64,000 nt of DNA from Escherichia phage A221, in sequence record ON862890.1. One strand, given 5' to 3'. Under the pieces are notes generated by a model. It did not search any database and had not been told where the DNA came from. It worked only from the letters and a program-made list of their open reading frames with translations. The number at the start of each line of letters is the position of its first letter. Position 1 is the first letter of the stretch. Position numbers and translations under genes: made by a program. Of this stretch, positions 3,009 to 50,383 are shown piece after piece.

Positions 3009-3416
3009 TCAGTGCTCCCGCGCCGGAAGAACTCCCACTGGTTCGATGCCATCCAACAGCAGGGAGTTCACACCCACATTACTCAGTCTGATCAAGATCG
3101 TTCCCCCTGGGTTAACTTCAAAGATACTCATCCCATTTCCAACCGCGTCGTTGTTAACGAACACGCCCTGAGTTGCGATTCGTACTGGTTTATCTGTGTC
3201 ATTCATGATCTTGAACGTCACGATTATATCCGATGTTGTACCCAGTCGTCCAACCATGCGTTGCTTCAGCTTGGCGTAGAATGATGGATTAAAGGTGATA
3301 ATGATGCTGTTGTTCTGAGAGTAATAAATACTTGCTGAAATGTATGGTATCTTCCCTTCATCGCCATGCCGCAGGAGAGGAATTGTGGTCTTCCAGTATG
3401 GCTTGAGGGTGCTCAT
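3009..3416 (-). CDS. hypothetical protein (135 aa)
   Basis: C-terminal 135 codons of minus ORF 3009-3824 look protein-like; start chosen at internal Met (alternative 3488); upstream part looks like antisense junk. Confidence 0.3.
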   Translation of the reverse strand: MSTLKPYWKTTIPLLRHGDEGKIPYISASIYYSQNNSIIITFNPSFYAKLKQRMVGRLGTTSDIIVTFKIMNDTDKPVRIATQGVFVNNDAVGNGMSIFEVNPGGTILIRLSNVGVNSLLLDGIEPVGVLPAREH

Positions 3417-7350: not shown

Positions 7351-7541
7351 ATATTACTCTCGTGTGTTGGTTAACATGACATACATATTATTTCGCGTGC
7401 ATGTTTAGACCAAATAAATTATTTTTGCTGTTGAATAAAAACTGCTTTCTTGTTGAACAATGGCGTGGTATTATACGAGTTGTGAGCGTTAGCGAACAAC
7501 GAGTATTTGTTTTATGAGCGAAGCGAATAGGATTAATAAAG

Positions 7542-7598
7542 ATTATTATCTTTAATAAAGGTTATTATCTTTAATAAAGGTTATTATCTTTAATAAAG
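7542..7598. repeat. 3 tandem copies of a 19-bp unit GTTATTATCTTTAATAAAG with palindromic core CTTTAATAAAG
   Basis: Read directly; unit starts at 7543, 7562, 7581 in the 380-bp AT-rich region upstream of gp45. Confidence 0.8.
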
Positions 7599-7731
7599 TC
7601 CATAAATGCCGAAGGCATTTATTAATAACGCGTAGCGCAATTTGCCACTTGTTCTATAAGCAAAACACAGCGATACTAGATTGCGTCAAACATGACTTGA
7701 ACCCCCCACTATATTTTGAGGATACATACAA

Positions 7732-16261: not shown

Positions 16262-16432
16262 ATGACAGAACCATTCAAGAAAGCTGGTCTAGACACCATC
16301 GACCTCAGCTTTAAACCGAGCGAAACGCTGATGAGTCAGATTGAACTCAATCGCGACTTCCTTGAATATATGCTGGTCAAGCCGGAAGGTGAGGCCGAAG
16401 ACAACCCTGAAGAAGGCAATAACGATGATTGA
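16262..16432 (+). CDS. small acidic protein (56 aa)
   Basis: Translated by hand (MTEPFKKAGLDTIDLSF...EEGNNDD); stop overlaps vWA start. Confidence 0.3.
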   Translation: MTEPFKKAGLDTIDLSFKPSETLMSQIELNRDFLEYMLVKPEGEAEDNPEEGNNDD

Positions 16433-18626
16433 ATCATTAGAATTTAAGAATGCGGTTGCGACTGCTGCCCCGTCCAACCATGTAATCGTTGTAGACATTT
16501 CTGGCTCTATGTACCGTGCACTCCCTGAAGTCCGTAAGCATCTGAAGGAGAACCTGCCTTCCCTGGTGAAACCGGAAGACACTGTGAGTGTTCTATACTT
16601 CTCATCTCGTGGCGACTTTGGCACTGTGTTCGCTGGTCGCCAGGTTAGTGCTGCGTCTGACCTGAGCGAGCTGAACAAACTGATCGACCGCTTCCTACAA
16701 CCATCTGGCTGTACTGGTTTTGTTGAGCCGTTGAAACTGGCGATGGACACTGCTCGTGGCCTGAAGAAGCCTGGCTATGTCAACAACCTGGCGTTCATGA
16801 CTGACGGGTATGACAACTGCTGGCGTACCAACGAAATTCTACTGGTTGCTGAGACCCTGCCATTTGCTTTCGATAACATTACATTTATCGAATATGGCTG
16901 GTACTGTAACCGCGAACTGCTGGCGCAGATGGCCGAACGCTCTGGTGCTACTCACGTGTTTGCCGAAGGTCAGACCGAATACCAGACCGAGCTGGAAAAC
17001 GTGCTGAAGTCATCAGTGCCGAAGGTGGTTGTTGATGTGCCTCTGTTATACACCCATGCTATCTATGTTGAAAACGGCGTAGCAACTGTTCTGGCGGTAC
17101 AGCCGGATGAAGACCATCCTATCGGCCACGTGAGCATCCCTGAGAGCGTCACCAAGCTGTGGGTTGTAAACCCTAACATGATCGACCAGATGGATAGCCT
17201 GACGGACATCCAGGCGGCATACGTGCTGGCGTTCTACGGCGTACACATCATGGACGCGGACCTGGTGTGGGCTGCACTGAAGAAAACGGGTGACGTTCGC
17301 TTCATCAAACAGTACAGCAACTGCTTCACCAAGCAGGACTACTCCAACATCAAGAACGATCTGGTTCAGGCGATTGTTGACGACCAGCTGCGCGGCGTTG
17401 ACGGTATTGACTATGACCTGGTTCCAGCTGAAGATGCGACCACCGTCGTTGATGTGCTGACGTACCTGGCTGAAGCTGGTGTGCCTGTTGCTACCAAGCA
17501 TCCGATGTTCTCCTATAAGAGCATCGGGCGCGGTACTGTGCAGAAAACCGACGACACCGAAGACAAGCTGGCAGAACAGATCGCGAATGCTCAGTCCAAA
17601 GAAGAGCGTAAAGCCCTGGCTCTCAAGCTGGCAGAGCACGAAGAGTGGAACCCGACGTTCGAACCTACCAACGACCTGGGTGTTGTGCCAATCAGCGATT
17701 TGGTCTATAACTCCGAGCGCCCGAACATCAGTGTGCGTACAATTCAACACGGTACTGTGGCTGTGCCTGAATTCGCACAGAAGAAGTTTGGCCTGCCTGA
17801 AGAACTGGATACTTTCCAGTGGCGCAACTACACCATCGTCAAAGACGGTATCATTAACGTGAAGACTCTGCCGTTCAAGGCTGATATCGAAGTTGTACAG
17901 AAGCTGATCGAAATGGGTGTCCACGTGTTTGGTGGTCCGGAAGTGTTCATCCTGAACCTGGAAAGCGTACCGCTGGTCAACCGCGCCATGGTCAAAAACA
18001 TCAGTGCTGCTCAGTTCTTTGCGGATAATGTCCGTCTGGAAGCCCTGAAAGGCAAGCAGAAGGTGCTGAAGTTCTATCGAGACGCCCTGGTTGGTAAGGG
18101 CAACGCCAAAGGCCTGGCAGTACAGTACGGCGCTGAGGCGGCCGAGTTCCTGTCCTCCTACGGCATCCGCGATTACGGCTTCTCACCGAAGACTGAGACC
18201 AAAGAGTCTACCGACTTCTACATGAGCCGTGAGCTGAACGTGAAGATCGCTGGCGCTTCTTCTCTACCGTCTATCGCAGCGGTACAGAAGAAGATTGCCG
18301 AGAACAAGAAACTCAATGCTGGTGACTTGTTCATCGCCAATGCGCTGAAGGAGTACGAAGCATTCGTGAAGTCTCCTATGATCACTGCCGTGCCTGAAGC
18401 CTTACAGAAACAGCTGATCGAAAACTGGATCGACGCTGCTGCCAAGGCGGCCATCACCGAAGTCCGTGCCCTGAACAAGACACTGTCTAAAGTGGTGTAT
18501 GGTATCGTTGCTGGCCACGGCTGGTTCACCGACCTCGACCTGGAAGAGTCCACCATGGAAGTTGAAGTGGATGGCGTGAAGTACAAGGTCACTGCCGAAC
18601 TGACAGAGAAAGAAATCAAAATCTAA
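16425..18626 (+). CDS. large protein with N-terminal von Willebrand factor A (vWA) domain (734 aa)
   Basis: MIDAS-like VVDISGSM and downstream FMTDGYDN; about 500 aa C-terminal region unassigned; start at internal ATG. Confidence 0.7.
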   Translation: MIESLEFKNAVATAAPSNHVIVVDISGSMYRALPEVRKHLKENLPSLVKPEDTVSVLYFSSRGDFGTVFAGRQVSAASDLSELNKLIDRFLQPSGCTGFVEPLKLAMDTARGLKKPGYVNNLAFMTDGYDNCWRTNEILLVAETLPFAFDNITFIEYGWYCNRELLAQMAERSGATHVFAEGQTEYQTELENVLKSSVPKVVVDVPLLYTHAIYVENGVATVLAVQPDEDHPIGHVSIPESVTKLWVVNPNMIDQMDSLTDIQAAYVLAFYGVHIMDADLVWAALKKTGDVRFIKQYSNCFTKQDYSNIKNDLVQAIVDDQLRGVDGIDYDLVPAEDATTVVDVLTYLAEAGVPVATKHPMFSYKSIGRGTVQKTDDTEDKLAEQIANAQSKEERKALALKLAEHEEWNPTFEPTNDLGVVPISDLVYNSERPNISVRTIQHGTVAVPEFAQKKFGLPEELDTFQWRNYTIVKDGIINVKTLPFKADIEVVQKLIEMGVHVFGGPEVFILNLESVPLVNRAMVKNISAAQFFADNVRLEALKGKQKVLKFYRDALVGKGNAKGLAVQYGAEAAEFLSSYGIRDYGFSPKTETKESTDFYMSRELNVKIAGASSLPSIAAVQKKIAENKKLNAGDLFIANALKEYEAFVKSPMITAVPEALQKQLIENWIDAAAKAAITEVRALNKTLSKVVYGIVAGHGWFTDLDLEESTMEVEVDGVKYKVTAELTEKEIKI

Positions 18627-18632
18627 TCCAAC

Positions 18633-18657
18633 GGGCGGGGCAACCCGCCTTTCTTTG
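18633..18657 (+). terminator. rho-independent terminator
   Basis: Stem GGCGGG/CCCGCC, loop GCAA, then TTTCTTT. Confidence 0.5.
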
Positions 18658-18668
18658 GGAGAAGTAGC

Positions 18669-18992
18669 ATGAGCAGTAAACCAACATATGTTGAAGTCAT
18701 GCGTCATCTGGCTCAGTACGCCACCGACAATCTGAATATGGATCTGTGGCGTGACGATGACAAGCGCAAATTGCTGGACGACGTGGCATCTCAGAACGAG
18801 GACGCCCTGGACAAGCTGGCTGGCCTCCGTACCAAGAAAGACCTCGGTGGTGACGAACTGGATGCCATCGAAATCGTAATGGAACTAGAAGAAGAGTTTC
18901 AGGTCGAAATCGACGACGGGTGGCTAGGTAGTAAAGGCGATGACCCGACCATGGGTGAACTCGCTGAACTCGTGGTTGCCCTGCGCAAATAA
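18669..18992 (+). CDS. acyl-carrier-protein-like protein with Glu in place of the phosphopantetheine-attachment Ser
   Basis: DLGGDELDAIEIVMELEEEFQVEID parallels ACP [24 protein letters not shown]; GGGAG RBS. Confidence 0.55.
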   Translation: MSSKPTYVEVMRHLAQYATDNLNMDLWRDDDKRKLLDDVASQNEDALDKLAGLRTKKDLGGDELDAIEIVMELEEEFQVEIDDGWLGSKGDDPTMGELAELVVALRK

Positions 18993-19354: not shown

Positions 19355-19413
19355 TTCTATAACTTTGGGCGGGGTATGATTACCCCGTCTATTTGAAACC
19401 AAGAGACTATATC

Positions 19414-19788
19414 ATGAAAAAGTTAATCCTCGCTGTTGCCCTGCTGGGCGCTTCCTTTGCTGCTGTTTCCGCCCCTCCTGTCATCACCGGAGTGTCTACC
19501 AACGGTGTTTATGCTTTCAAGGCGTATGGCCAAGACCTCGTTCTGTATAAGAACGGGAAGATGATTGAGCGCTGCGTATCAGACGACGTGAATCGTGGGA
19601 TCGACAATCAGGGTAGCCCATACGTCCTGGACATCTATTCCTGCTCCAACGGGACGAAGTCCTTTGGCGTCAAGACCTTTGGCAACGTCGCCGACGGTGG
19701 CTGGGGCTTCATGTTCGAAACCCGCAACCACCACCCGGTCAAGACCATGCAAGAAGAGTTCTTGATCTCTGTCGGGGGTACGTTATGA
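19414..19788 (+). CDS. secreted protein (signal peptide)
   Basis: N-terminal MKKLILAVALLGASFAAVSA; conserved AGAGACTATATC-ATG motif. Confidence 0.5.
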   Translation: MKKLILAVALLGASFAAVSAPPVITGVSTNGVYAFKAYGQDLVLYKNGKMIERCVSDDVNRGIDNQGSPYVLDIYSCSNGTKSFGVKTFGNVADGGWGFMFETRNHHPVKTMQEEFLISVGGTL

Positions 19789-20264: not shown

Positions 20265-20714
20265 ATGTTCCTTACATCTTTTATTGACTGGTTGAACATC
20301 ATTAACGGCCTGAGGATTCCTGTTGGGAACCTCGGGCTTTCTCGTTCTTCTATGCCGCAAATCGATGCCGACAAACAAGAAGATTTTCACAAATATCTTG
20401 AAGACAACGGCGTGTCCATAGATGCTGTGCAAGTGCCCATCAAAATGCTTCGTCTCACCCAGAACGAAATCAACAAGATGAAGGTCTGGAAGATCATGAA
20501 GAACATCAGAAATAAGAAACCTATGGGTCGAGTTTGGGTGTCTTCTGACAATTACGTTGTTGACGGTTCTCACCGATTTGTCGCTGCGTTGAACATGGAC
20601 GGCAAACAGCGCATGAAGGTCTACAAAGTTGATTTGCCAGCGATGGAATTTGTTAAACTCGCTAAACAGTTTCAGGGTGTGCGATACAGAACGGTCTCAG
20701 ATTCGAGATACTAA
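20265..20714 (+). CDS. hypothetical protein, possible ParB-like nuclease domain
   Basis: GAGGTG RBS; motif VVDGSHRFVAAL resembles ParB/Srx DGxHR; weak. Confidence 0.45.
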   Translation: MFLTSFIDWLNIINGLRIPVGNLGLSRSSMPQIDADKQEDFHKYLEDNGVSIDAVQVPIKMLRLTQNEINKMKVWKIMKNIRNKKPMGRVWVSSDNYVVDGSHRFVAALNMDGKQRMKVYKVDLPAMEFVKLAKQFQGVRYRTVSDSRY

Positions 20715-20715
20715 T

Positions 20716-21549
20716 ATGGACGTCTATTCAGAACTTATCGAAATAGGAGCGAAACGTCATTTCGTAAACAAATATCTTTCGCTCATTTCTTCTTTTAGTC
20801 ATTACCAAGGCGTCGGGGAGAAGCATCACATATTACCTGTGGCATTGTTCCCCGAATATGCCACGGAATACGAAAACATCGTCAAACTGCCTCATAGGGT
20901 TCATTATATTGCCCATGTGTGTCTTGCTCTTGCGTTACCAGGTTCATGTATGGTAAATGCGATTATGATTTTGAAGCGGTTAGATAGTAGAGTCAACTCA
21001 CACCTGTTTGCGAAAATGCGCAAGAGATTCGCCGAAAGGCTTTCTGTGGTGAATGCAGGGGAAAATAATCCCATGTATGGCAAGAAGAGATCCCAGAAGG
21101 CAAAGAAAAAGACCTCGGAGTCTCTTAGAAATTTTTATAAATCTAAAAGAAAAGAAGATCCAGATTTAAAAGAATTTTTCTCGGAAAGGAATTCTAAAAT
21201 AAAACGGGGAAAAGATCACCATTCTTATGGGAATAAATTGACCAATAATCTTACTCCAGAACAAGAACGATGTAGAATAGAATCGGTCACCAAGACTTCC
21301 CGTGAAACCATGCCCTGGGAGAAGCCAAGATGGAAACCAGAAAGGGACAAATGGTGGTGTTGGGCTGCACATATACACTATCACATATTGAAAGGTAAGA
21401 CGAGAGGGGAAGCCCTGAAACAAGTATTCGGTTCCAATGACGCAGAAATTTGGGCACAGGTTCGGCCAATTATTCTACGGTTGGATAACGGTTGGGACCC
21501 TTTAACTTGCGAAAAATGGGTTAATCGTTATGGGGTGGAATACCAGTAA
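20716..21549 (+). CDS. HNH-family homing endonuclease with NUMOD-like repeats
   Basis: HHILPVALFPEY...LPHRVHYIAH HNH core; ENNPMYGKK and HHSYGNK repeats; AT-rich segment around 21100-21260. Confidence 0.65.
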   Translation: MDVYSELIEIGAKRHFVNKYLSLISSFSHYQGVGEKHHILPVALFPEYATEYENIVKLPHRVHYIAHVCLALALPGSCMVNAIMILKRLDSRVNSHLFAKMRKRFAERLSVVNAGENNPMYGKKRSQKAKKKTSESLRNFYKSKRKEDPDLKEFFSERNSKIKRGKDHHSYGNKLTNNLTPEQERCRIESVTKTSRETMPWEKPRWKPERDKWWCWAAHIHYHILKGKTRGEALKQVFGSNDAEIWAQVRPIILRLDNGWDPLTCEKWVNRYGVEYQ

Positions 21550-21643
21550 ACCACCCGTTTCTGAATACGATAGTTTATTGAATCCCTTTACTCATCATGG
21601 TGAGCCGCCTATCATTTCATCCAATGAAATAAGGAGAATCACC

Positions 21644-22330
21644 ATGAAACGTTTAATCCTCGGGGTTGTGCTGGCTGGTCTGGCATTACCCGCCGCTACC
21701 AAGCTGAACTCCACAGGTGATAAACTGTGGTCCGACCTTTCCTATTGTGCTGGGTTCTCCCAGGCGGTTGCCATCGACAAGTCTGGTTCCATAGAGAACT
21801 TCGCTGAACTCTGGAACACAGGCAACGTCTCCACCGCTGTCGTCAATGCCGGAATTGAGTTCAACCGTTACAAACAGGGAGCCTATAACCTCAAGGGCTA
21901 CCTCAATGACGAAGAATTTAACCGTGGAGGCATGGAGGCTGGCGATTTGATCATGACTGGGCGTATGGGCACCCAAGGCCGAATGACAGTCAGACAGTGC
22001 CGTTCGCTCCCTTCTCCGGCATTACAGAAGGGGGTGCAGATAGGCCGCCGCCACCTGAACCTTATCAACGATGGCAACCAGTGCGTCAAAGTATTCGAAT
22101 ACAGCGCTACGCAGACCTCTGATCGCGTCCTGAAGAAGGAATGGCGCACCCGCGCTCTTGGTCTCAGGGCATGGTTGGTGGAGAACGATTATTACTTTGA
22201 AGACAGGGTTCAGAACGGTCTGAAAGACCTGGCCACGAATCTGAGCGTGAACCTTGATGATCCTCGCATGTCGCGCGAACTCCAGCAGACTCGTGTTGAC
22301 TGCGACAATATGATGAAGGAGAACGAGTGA
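21644..22330 (+). CDS. secreted protein (signal peptide)
   Basis: Internal ATG with AAGGAG RBS; MKRLILGVVLAGLALPAA. Confidence 0.5.
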   Translation: MKRLILGVVLAGLALPAATKLNSTGDKLWSDLSYCAGFSQAVAIDKSGSIENFAELWNTGNVSTAVVNAGIEFNRYKQGAYNLKGYLNDEEFNRGGMEAGDLIMTGRMGTQGRMTVRQCRSLPSPALQKGVQIGRRHLNLINDGNQCVKVFEYSATQTSDRVLKKEWRTRALGLRAWLVENDYYFEDRVQNGLKDLATNLSVNLDDPRMSRELQQTRVDCDNMMKENE

Positions 22331-22656
22331 TGAAATGTAAAATCCTGCTCTTGTTGGTACTGATAGCCGGGTGTGTAAATGCCGCGCCACCGTCTAAACT
22401 GAACACATGTGTGGCATGGATGGAGACGTATCAGCAGTTCCACCCAGATGACAAAGACACATCTATCCTCCTGTCCGACTTCGAGGGGGAGCTGAAGCGC
22501 CTTGATCTGTTCAGTGTTGATCAGATAGAGAATGCGCTGGATCTTCCCATGATGCTGACTGCGGCTGATAACAGTCCACAAACGAAGAAAGACCTGATGT
22601 ATTGCCGGGGAATTGCCCAGGACTTTGTCGGATTTCAAAATAAAGTTTCGGGTTAA
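22330..22656 (+). CDS. putative lipoprotein
   Basis: MKCKILLLLVLIAGC lipobox-like; start overlaps upstream stop. Confidence 0.5.
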   Translation: MKCKILLLLVLIAGCVNAAPPSKLNTCVAWMETYQQFHPDDKDTSILLSDFEGELKRLDLFSVDQIENALDLPMMLTAADNSPQTKKDLMYCRGIAQDFVGFQNKVSG

Positions 22657-49871: not shown

Positions 49872-49905
49872 ATTGAATTCCGGTTGTCAAACAAGGATTT
49901 GAAGG

Positions 49906-49913
49906 TATTTATG
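49906..49913 (-). promoter_or_regulatory. late-promoter-like element CATAAATA (one mismatch to TATAAATA)
   Basis: 34 nt upstream of gp5-like start, same spacing as the exact minus-strand sites. Confidence 0.3.
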
Positions 49914-50210
49914 CGCAGCTGATTTTGCCTTATATACTATAGGAAGCTCTGCTTCCGTTCATTTTATTTGTTTTATTCGATCCTATTCGCTTCGCTCATC
50001 AAACCGCCCTATGCGGGCAGCACCATTCCAATGCCATGGAGGCATAAGGGCGAGTCAATAACTGTACACCCCAGAACACTCCTTGAAAAATGGTATTTTA
50101 CTGACAATCTGATTCAAAACAGACAAACACCAACAAATGACTCGGGAACAAGCCCATTATAGCAATTTCAGGTAAAGAGAGTGCGTGTTAACCGATTTTA
50201 CAGTTAAGCC

Positions 50211-50240
50211 AATAAAAATCCCGCCGAAGCGGGATTACTG
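50211..50240 (-). terminator. rho-independent terminator (minus strand)
   Basis: Stem AATCCCGC/GCGGGATT, loop TTCG, then TTTTTATT on minus strand. Confidence 0.65.
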
Positions 50241-50383
50241 TTTCTTAGACAACCTGACCTTGAGGGCTTCGGTTAACAAGTCAAGATGCCATGGCATCGA
50301 CTCGTTGATTTCAAATATGCTATAGCCGTGTAACTTCAATTCATCACACATCACGAAGTAGGATAATAAATCAGTTTCAAACA

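Follow-up and report, generated by a model that had tools for sequence, protein, structure and literature searches.

Intron-less homing is known for the seg and mob genes of bacteriophage T4 (PMC2988022). The mob genes, and the F-Lim genes of the Ackermannviridae phage LIMEstone1, are sporadically distributed among relatives and are passed on by recombination-dependent homing (PMC2988022, PMC3296691). With 14 homing endonuclease genes in LIMEstone1, free-standing HNH types included (PMC3296691), the Ackermannviridae are a known host family for these elements. The HNH homing endonucleases of phages studied so far are mostly nicking enzymes, and free-standing phage homing endonucleases often cut hundreds of base pairs away from their own genes (PMC2988022).

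Here, we describe a homing endonuclease gene (HEG; the plus-strand ORF at 20716–21549) in the window, by which we mean the entire 64-kb stretch of Escherichia phage A221 DNA that was analyzed. The window belongs to a ViI-like (Ackermannviridae), Agtrevirus-like (Aglimvirinae) E. coli phage; it is 97–98% identical to the E. coli phages PC3, PH4, RPN242, YX22, ZQ1, and AV101, and ~92% identical to Agtrevirus Ag3 and P46FS4. The nearest known copies of the HEG, with 99.3–100% amino acid identity, reside in the Kuttervirus phages GG32, Se-B, PS5_70, STP55, BRM 13312/13314, PMBT18, pSC20, and STP07. There, the locus (between the ParB-like gene and the i-spanin gene) and the junctions are as in the window, while the genomic background is Cvivirinae rather than Aglimvirinae. 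The identical protein is already deposited under the name ‘homing endonuclease’ in the RefSeq record of GG32 (YP_009283925.1) and in Se-B; we are therefore dealing with a known element in a new genomic background. The literature that we searched contains no experimental characterization of the Kuttervirus copies.

Like T4 MobA and MobE and LIMEstone1 F-LimI to F-LimXI, the HEG is intergenic and intron-less and encodes an N-terminal HNH domain with a separate DNA-binding region at the C terminus. The sites nicked by MobA and MobE lie in other genes (gene 39 and nrdB), whereas the presumed target of the HEG product is the end of the adjacent ParB-like gene. The protein also resembles I-HmuI, I-TevIII, and I-TevI in its ‘beads on a string’ order of a small nuclease, NUMOD-type repeats, and a C-terminal helical DNA-binding domain; unlike I-HmuI and I-TevIII, it is not intron-encoded, and the catalytic domain of I-TevI is of the GIY-YIG rather than the HNH type. 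None of the 113 records matching the HEG (tblastn, E ≤ 1e-5) is a T4-type phage. Paralogues that are ~36–39% identical occur at other loci elsewhere in the Ackermannviridae, and tblastn detected no paralogue within the 64-kb window.

An intact free-standing gene between a ParB-like gene and the spanin genes

The initial annotation had placed an ORF at the coordinates of the HEG; these are exact, and the 277-residue frame is intact (Table 1). The gene sits between the ParB-like gene and the i-spanin gene, in neither an intron nor an intein, and its ATG begins 1 nt past the TAA of the upstream 149-residue gene (TAATATG). Among the PHROGs families, phrog_655 ‘homing endonuclease’ matches the protein over its full length (E = 3.1e-49) and phrog_12434 ‘HNH endonuclease’ matches it at E = 2.2e-14; an NCBIfam search returned nothing useful. 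The downstream i-spanin gene is undisturbed by the insertion. Its PHROG match covers the long ORF only from residue 39 onward, and we therefore place its true start at 21644.

Table 1 Features of the HEG locus (window coordinates).
Feature	Coordinates	Strand	Basis or remarks
ParB/sulfiredoxin-fold gene	20265–20714	+	149 aa; conserved in Ackermannviridae; HEG cassette in its last codons
Tract 100% identical to Salmonella Kuttervirus PS5	20655–21582	+	928 bp; transferred segment, with adjoining flank conserved in any case
Left junction: recoded replacement 3′ end of the ParB-like gene	20697–20715	+	TCAGATTCGAGATACTAA = SDSRY-stop, plus 1 nt
Free-standing HEG	20716–21549	+	Intact ORF, 277 aa plus stop
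HNH catalytic core, residues 35–73	20818–20934	+	E35, H37, H38, N54, H63, H67; predicted beta-beta-alpha unit
NUMOD3 DNA-binding repeat 1, holding NPMYGKK	21037–21111	+	Pfam PF07460, residues 108–132
AT-rich segment: Lys/Asn/Ser-rich linker and second NUMOD3-like repeat	21100–21260	+	GC 0.304, GC3 0.24
Degenerate second NUMOD3-like repeat, SKIKRGKDHHSYGNKLT	21193–21243	+	Pfam below cutoff; alignment with homologues
C-terminal helical domain, residues 195–277, presumed sequence-specific DNA-binding module	21298–21546	+	
Right junction: 15-nt remnant of the original 3′ end of the ParB-like gene	21550–21564	+	ACCACCCGTTTCTGA, versus GACACCCGTTTCTGA in empty sites
i-spanin, downstream host gene	21644–22330	+	phrog_4260, residues 39–266; annotated i-spanin in PS5 and ChubbyThor
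o-spanin	22327–22656	+	phrog_3843 Rz-like spanin match

Domain architecture of the HEG product

An HNH core had been claimed, and both conserved residues and profile matches support this. The core EKHHILPVALFPEYATEYENIVKLPHRVHYIAH comprises residues 35–67 (nt 20818–20916). The histidines H37, H38, H63, and H67 do not vary across 70 homologues, which are representatives taken from a library of 1.84 billion proteins, and conservation of E35 and N54 reaches 90% or more; a set of 11 homologues shares the motif E35-x-H37-H38-I-x-P...N54...H63...H67 without exception. The spacing of the motif residues is 16/9/4, which we take to be that of colicin-type HNH motifs; the corresponding HNH residues of colicin E9 are H102, H103, N118, H127, and H131. 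In the AlphaFold2 (AF2) model, the motif residues map to strands at residues 35–38 and 55–58 and to a helix at residues 60–73 (pLDDT 81–91); whole-model fold searches with the AF2 structure gave nothing significant. When the 70-sequence profile was searched against the PDB, the best match for the HNH region was the McrA HNH domain (E = 0.0025), followed by weaker matches to Cas8f-HNH, a group II intron maturase, and pyocin AP41 (E = 0.04–0.3). The seven PDB profile matches comprise HNH nucleases and the I-TevI DNA-binding domain only. A phmmer search of the PDB with the single HEG protein returned ACBD6 as its sole match, which we rejected as spurious.

No Pfam HNH model matches the HEG protein, be it scanned at full length or as separate N- and C-terminal domains. 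Ten distant homologues likewise yielded no Pfam HNH family above cutoff, one of them matching HNH_5 below cutoff (E = 0.0047). From the motif and the profile evidence, we accept the N-terminal domain as a predicted HNH domain. The domain (nt 20716–20970) represents a subtype without Cys zinc ligands that is widespread, with 1,692 representatives of 50%-identity clusters at E ≤ 1e-3, matched mostly via the HNH and NUMOD3 parts. Pfam HNH models miss this Cys-less subtype, and public names are therefore often ‘NUMOD3 motif family protein’ or ‘hypothetical protein’.

The initial annotation had also named two NUMOD-like repeats, NPMYGKK and HSYGNK, of which the first stands and the second shows only weak NUMOD3 likeness. 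The first repeat, with NPMYGKK at nt 21067–21087, scores above the Pfam cutoff (E = 6.8e-9, 36 bits vs a cutoff of 20.4), and the profile search of the PDB returned the I-TevI DNA-binding domain 1I3J for the NUMOD3 region (E = 8.7e-5). Scanned alone, the second repeat, with HSYGNK at nt 21220–21237, matches NUMOD3 below cutoff (E = 0.21, 12 bits); it lines up with clear NUMOD3 repeats of homologues, with conservation of G165 and G172 at 90% or more. Across three HEG lineages, conservation within the protein is highest in the C-terminal domain. A modular architecture can thus be predicted, in which an N-terminal HNH nuclease is joined through one or two NUMOD3 minor-groove/linker repeats to a helical DNA-binding domain at the C terminus.

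Sporadic presence and a recoded insertion site

The locus was found in 276 phage records, 19 of which contain HEG DNA (16 of these at 80% or more of its length), leaving the HEG missing from ~93% of the related genomes that have the locus. All eight of the closest genomes (97–98% identical) lack it, and in each the empty site is preserved intact where the upstream gene has its last codons; a 4.6-kb query comprising the HEG and its surroundings is covered to 81% by these genomes, and the uncovered piece is exactly the HEG ORF. Kuttervirus genomes Se-H, Se-J, and Se-N are also devoid of the HEG. The comparison of relatives for presence or absence thus revealed a sporadic distribution.

The insertion point lies directly past the RTV codons of the RTVSD tail of the ParB-like protein. 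The empty site of YX22 and fGh-Ecl02 reads ...AGAACGGTC AGCGACACCCGTTTCTGA ATACGATAG..., with AGCGACACCCGTTTCTGA encoding SDTRF-stop in the HEG-less relatives; in P46FS4, the site is likewise undivided and its tail has diverged (TCTGACGCTCGCTTCTGA). The filled site of the window reads ...AGAACGGTC TCAGATTCGAGATACTAA T [ATG...TAA] ACCACCCGTTTCTGA ATACGATAG.... We defined the remnant at the right junction by alignment with YX22, fGh-Ecl02, and P46FS4; ChubbyThor and KpS110 retain shorter remnants. From the base-level alignment of filled and empty sites, it follows that the cassette brings its own recoded gene end, SDSRY-stop, which is common to the HEG-bearing Kuttervirus and Taipeivirus genomes. 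The replacement 3′ end leaves the host ORF at full length. A 31-mer of the empty site is intact in other contigs of Ackermannviridae size in IMG/VR, where scans for filled and empty junctions returned just a handful of isolate-like contigs; conservation of this 31-mer would permit the HEG to spread between subfamilies.

A short tract probably imported from a Kuttervirus-like donor

Horizontal acquisition, which the initial annotation had read from base composition, is borne out on stronger evidence: the 928-bp tract that is identical to Kuttervirus stands between divergent flanks. The same tract is 100% identical in Kuttervirus STP55 and BRM 13312, and the HEG itself is 99.7–100% identical at the nucleotide level in 12 Salmonella Kuttervirus records, while the Kuttervirus flanking genes outside the stretch from the ParB-like gene to the spanin genes are ~70–77% identical to the window, with values of 67–82% for the more distant DNA. 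The first sites that distinguish donor from recipient lie at 20567–20654 on the left and at 21583 on the right. On the right, the window has returned to the alleles of its own lineage by 21583; on the left, the switch falls between 20567 and 20697, and the left end of the transferred tract is not placeable exactly because donor and recipient are identical over 20655–20696. Besides the HEG itself, the import therefore comprises no more than ~130 bp to its left and 33 bp to its right. So short a tract argues for a break made near the insertion point.

Klebsiella Taipeivirus KpS110 and Agtrevirus ChubbyThor have HEG orthologues (75% and 69% amino acid identity, respectively) at this site, with junctions of the same kind. 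The insertion point, with remnants of the old gene end, is common to all three lineages (window/Kuttervirus, KpS110, and ChubbyThor). Among these lineages, pN is 0.15–0.21 vs a saturated pS of 0.78–0.88; the low pN and the conserved C-terminal domain fit what may be a maintained, target-specific enzyme.

Escherichia phage CBA120 carries a derivative of the HEG with an in-frame deletion of 558 nt, encoding 91 residues and lacking the HNH and NUMOD3 parts. It lies at 3027–3302 of the CBA120 locus sequence, corresponds to 20716–20825 joined to 21386–21549 of the window, and is 99.7% identical over the retained parts; it is only partly annotated, as the hypothetical orf136. The deletion ends adjoin a ATCACATATT direct repeat of the intact HEG. 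The CBA120 relic is the decay stage of a homing cycle.

Homing and its alternatives

The proposal of a free-standing homing endonuclease is upheld by the HNH motif, the NUMOD3 repeat, the phrog_655 match, sporadic presence at a single locus, and the empty site. We consider it highly probable that the HEG is a free-standing, intron-less homing endonuclease gene that recently homed in from a Kuttervirus-like phage, and the reading of the window copy as a recent homing event of a textbook element of this kind is well supported. In such a scheme, an HEG-bearing Kuttervirus-like phage and an HEG-less Agtrevirus-like ancestor would have co-infected one enterobacterial cell. The enzyme would nick or cut the empty allele at or near ...CAGAACGGTC/AGCGACACCCGTTTCTGAATACG... 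(GGTC/AGCGACACCCGTTTCTGAATACG), and recombinational repair off the HEG-bearing genome would copy ~0.85 kb plus no more than ~130 bp of left and 33 bp of right flank. The filled allele would then be immune because its target site is split and recoded. The DNA of Ackermannviridae contains modified thymidines. Expression of the HEG is probably low and translationally coupled to the upstream gene, as suggested by the TAATATG junction and a weak Shine-Dalgarno sequence. As such enzymes often cut at a distance, we infer the position of the target at the insertion point from the very short donor-type tract.

Could the protein instead serve the phage, as a domesticated HNH/NUMOD3 protein that acts in marker exclusion of co-infecting phages or in DNA processing? 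Phage homing endonuclease genes are documented to cause marker exclusion and to give flanking markers a selective advantage (Goodrich-Blair and Shub 1996, and SegG, as cited in PMC3296691 and PMC2988022); the HEG is under purifying selection, and its target locus is conserved across subfamilies. Against this, the HEG is dispensable, being absent at the locus from ~93% of related genomes and from every one of the closest, and terminase and replication genes are not adjacent to it. A role in phage competition would, moreover, follow from homing itself and not amount to a separate function. We thus regard domestication as unlikely. Slightly less likely still is that the gene arrived by homing, looks intact, and is a relic that cuts no more and awaits decay. 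Decay does occur at the locus, as the CBA120 deletion attests, and the 100% identity between the window and the 12 Salmonella phages speaks to recency and is uninformative about selection on this particular copy. Yet every residue of the catalytic motif is kept, purifying selection across the three lineages is strong (pN/pS ~0.2, with pS saturated), and an entry into an Agtrevirus-like background as recent as this implies activity shortly before.

If the HEG did recently home in as proposed, the value of the locus is mainly one of annotation and of a clean natural example; it opens no new question. Three stages of a homing cycle are on view at one site: the empty site, a fresh invasion with a very short co-conversion tract, and the CBA120 relic. 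That a selfish gene has crossed between subfamilies of Salmonella and E. coli phages implies that these phages co-infect the same cells. For therapeutic and biocontrol phages of the Ackermannviridae, the HEG flags a mobile nuclease gene. Its product is a candidate site-specific enzyme, with a target of ~30 bp that can be guessed from the empty site.

Base composition of the HEG and its AT-rich segment

The AT-rich stretch that had been pointed out at about 21100–21260 is real, at 30% GC, with just 0.27% of the 161-bp windows of the 64 kb as low. It encodes AKKKTSESLRNFYKSKRKEDPDLKEFFSERNSKIKRGKDHHSYGNKLTNNLTPE, the NUMOD3 linker. As a sign of transfer, the stretch was only partly the right place to look: the whole HEG is low in GC and Kuttervirus-like, and the segment is not a separately acquired piece. 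The GC content of the entire gene is 0.414 vs 0.492 for the window, within the lowest 0.6% of 834-bp windows, and its GC3 is 0.41 vs 0.54–0.63 in the adjoining genes; the gene is close to the Kuttervirus PS5 and GG32 flanks (0.433–0.435) and unlike the flanks in the window (0.497). With the codon usage of the neighbors, the segment peptide would be encoded at a GC of 0.443 and the whole HEG at 0.502. The amino acids therefore account for part of the dip in the segment, and A/T-ending codons for the rest.

It is very improbable that the segment is a separate, later insertion that made the gene a mosaic, or a hidden regulatory element such as an internal late promoter: its GC of 0.30 and GC3 of 0.24 are far under those of the rest of the HEG, and TATAAATC at 21136 agrees with 7 of the 8 positions of the T4 late-promoter consensus, but this NUMOD3 repeat/linker region is in frame and colinear in all orthologues and in distant homologues, is also AT-rich in GG32 and KpS110, and contains the one occurrence of TATAAATC in the window, where 1.0 is expected by chance. 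The internal late promoter was rejected on the chance-level TATAAATC and on a sigma-70 promoter scan that found none within the segment.

Other lowest-GC stretches of the window lie at 7351–7731 and 49872–50383 (GC down to 0.27–0.32). Both were rejected as further homing endonuclease genes, being intergenic and without mobile genes; they are gaps between divergent or convergent genes and probably regulatory.

A ParB/sulfiredoxin-fold gene with a possible history of exchange of its own

The neighboring gene had been called a possible ParB-like nuclease gene, and ParB-like is right at the level of the fold. The AF2 model of the protein (pLDDT 83, pTM 0.77) retrieved ParB-N, sulfiredoxin (Srx), and Noc structures from the PDB with Foldseek (best E = 9.4e-4, probability 1.0), and each of the top 39 matches is a ParB-N, Srx, Noc, SbnI, or serine kinase structure. 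D100-G-S-H-R104 is invariant (DGxHR motif), and R142, T143, S145, and D146 of the tail are invariant or at least 90% conserved. UniRef names the protein ‘ParB/Sulfiredoxin domain-containing’. The PHROG ParB-like match is weak (5e-4), Pfam gave no match, ParBc included, and a sequence profile search of the PDB found nothing, so that PDB matches came from the fold search alone. Proteins of the ParB/Srx fold include CTPases, kinases, sulfiredoxin, and some nucleases, and nuclease activity is one candidate among these.

The ParB/Srx genes of the window, YX22, and fGh-Ecl02 are 95–98% identical to the Kuttervirus alleles of PS5, GG32, and CBA120, and just 78–80% identical to those of Agtrevirus P46FS4 and ChubbyThor; for the surrounding genome, the relationship is reversed. 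The exchanged tract extends from ~20229 to the HEG insertion point. In these alignments, the Kuttervirus-type gene in the clade of the window points to what would be an older module exchange ending at or near the HEG site. A tentative suggestion, which we hold to be rather less probable than not, is that recombination recurs at the HEG site as a hotspot and so moves the ParB/Srx gene between Ackermannviridae subfamilies. If endonuclease breaks did cause the exchange, the HEG would be shaping core-gene mosaicism across phages of different host genera.

Upstream of the ParB/Srx gene, a 50-bp stretch at ~19368–19417 marks a second variable slot. In relatives, this stretch flanks an extra gene on both sides, the gene being a 168-residue ORF (fGh-Ecl02, CBA120, and ChubbyThor) or denV, a pyrimidine-dimer glycosylase gene (P46FS4, PS5, and GG32); in the window and in YX22, the stretch occurs just once and the extra gene is missing. 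Further upstream (16341–18992) are ORFs of 761 and 107 residues, for which the annotations in relatives are von Willebrand factor A (VWA)-domain protein and acyl carrier protein, a pair that is unusual in a lytic phage and is kept across the Ackermannviridae.
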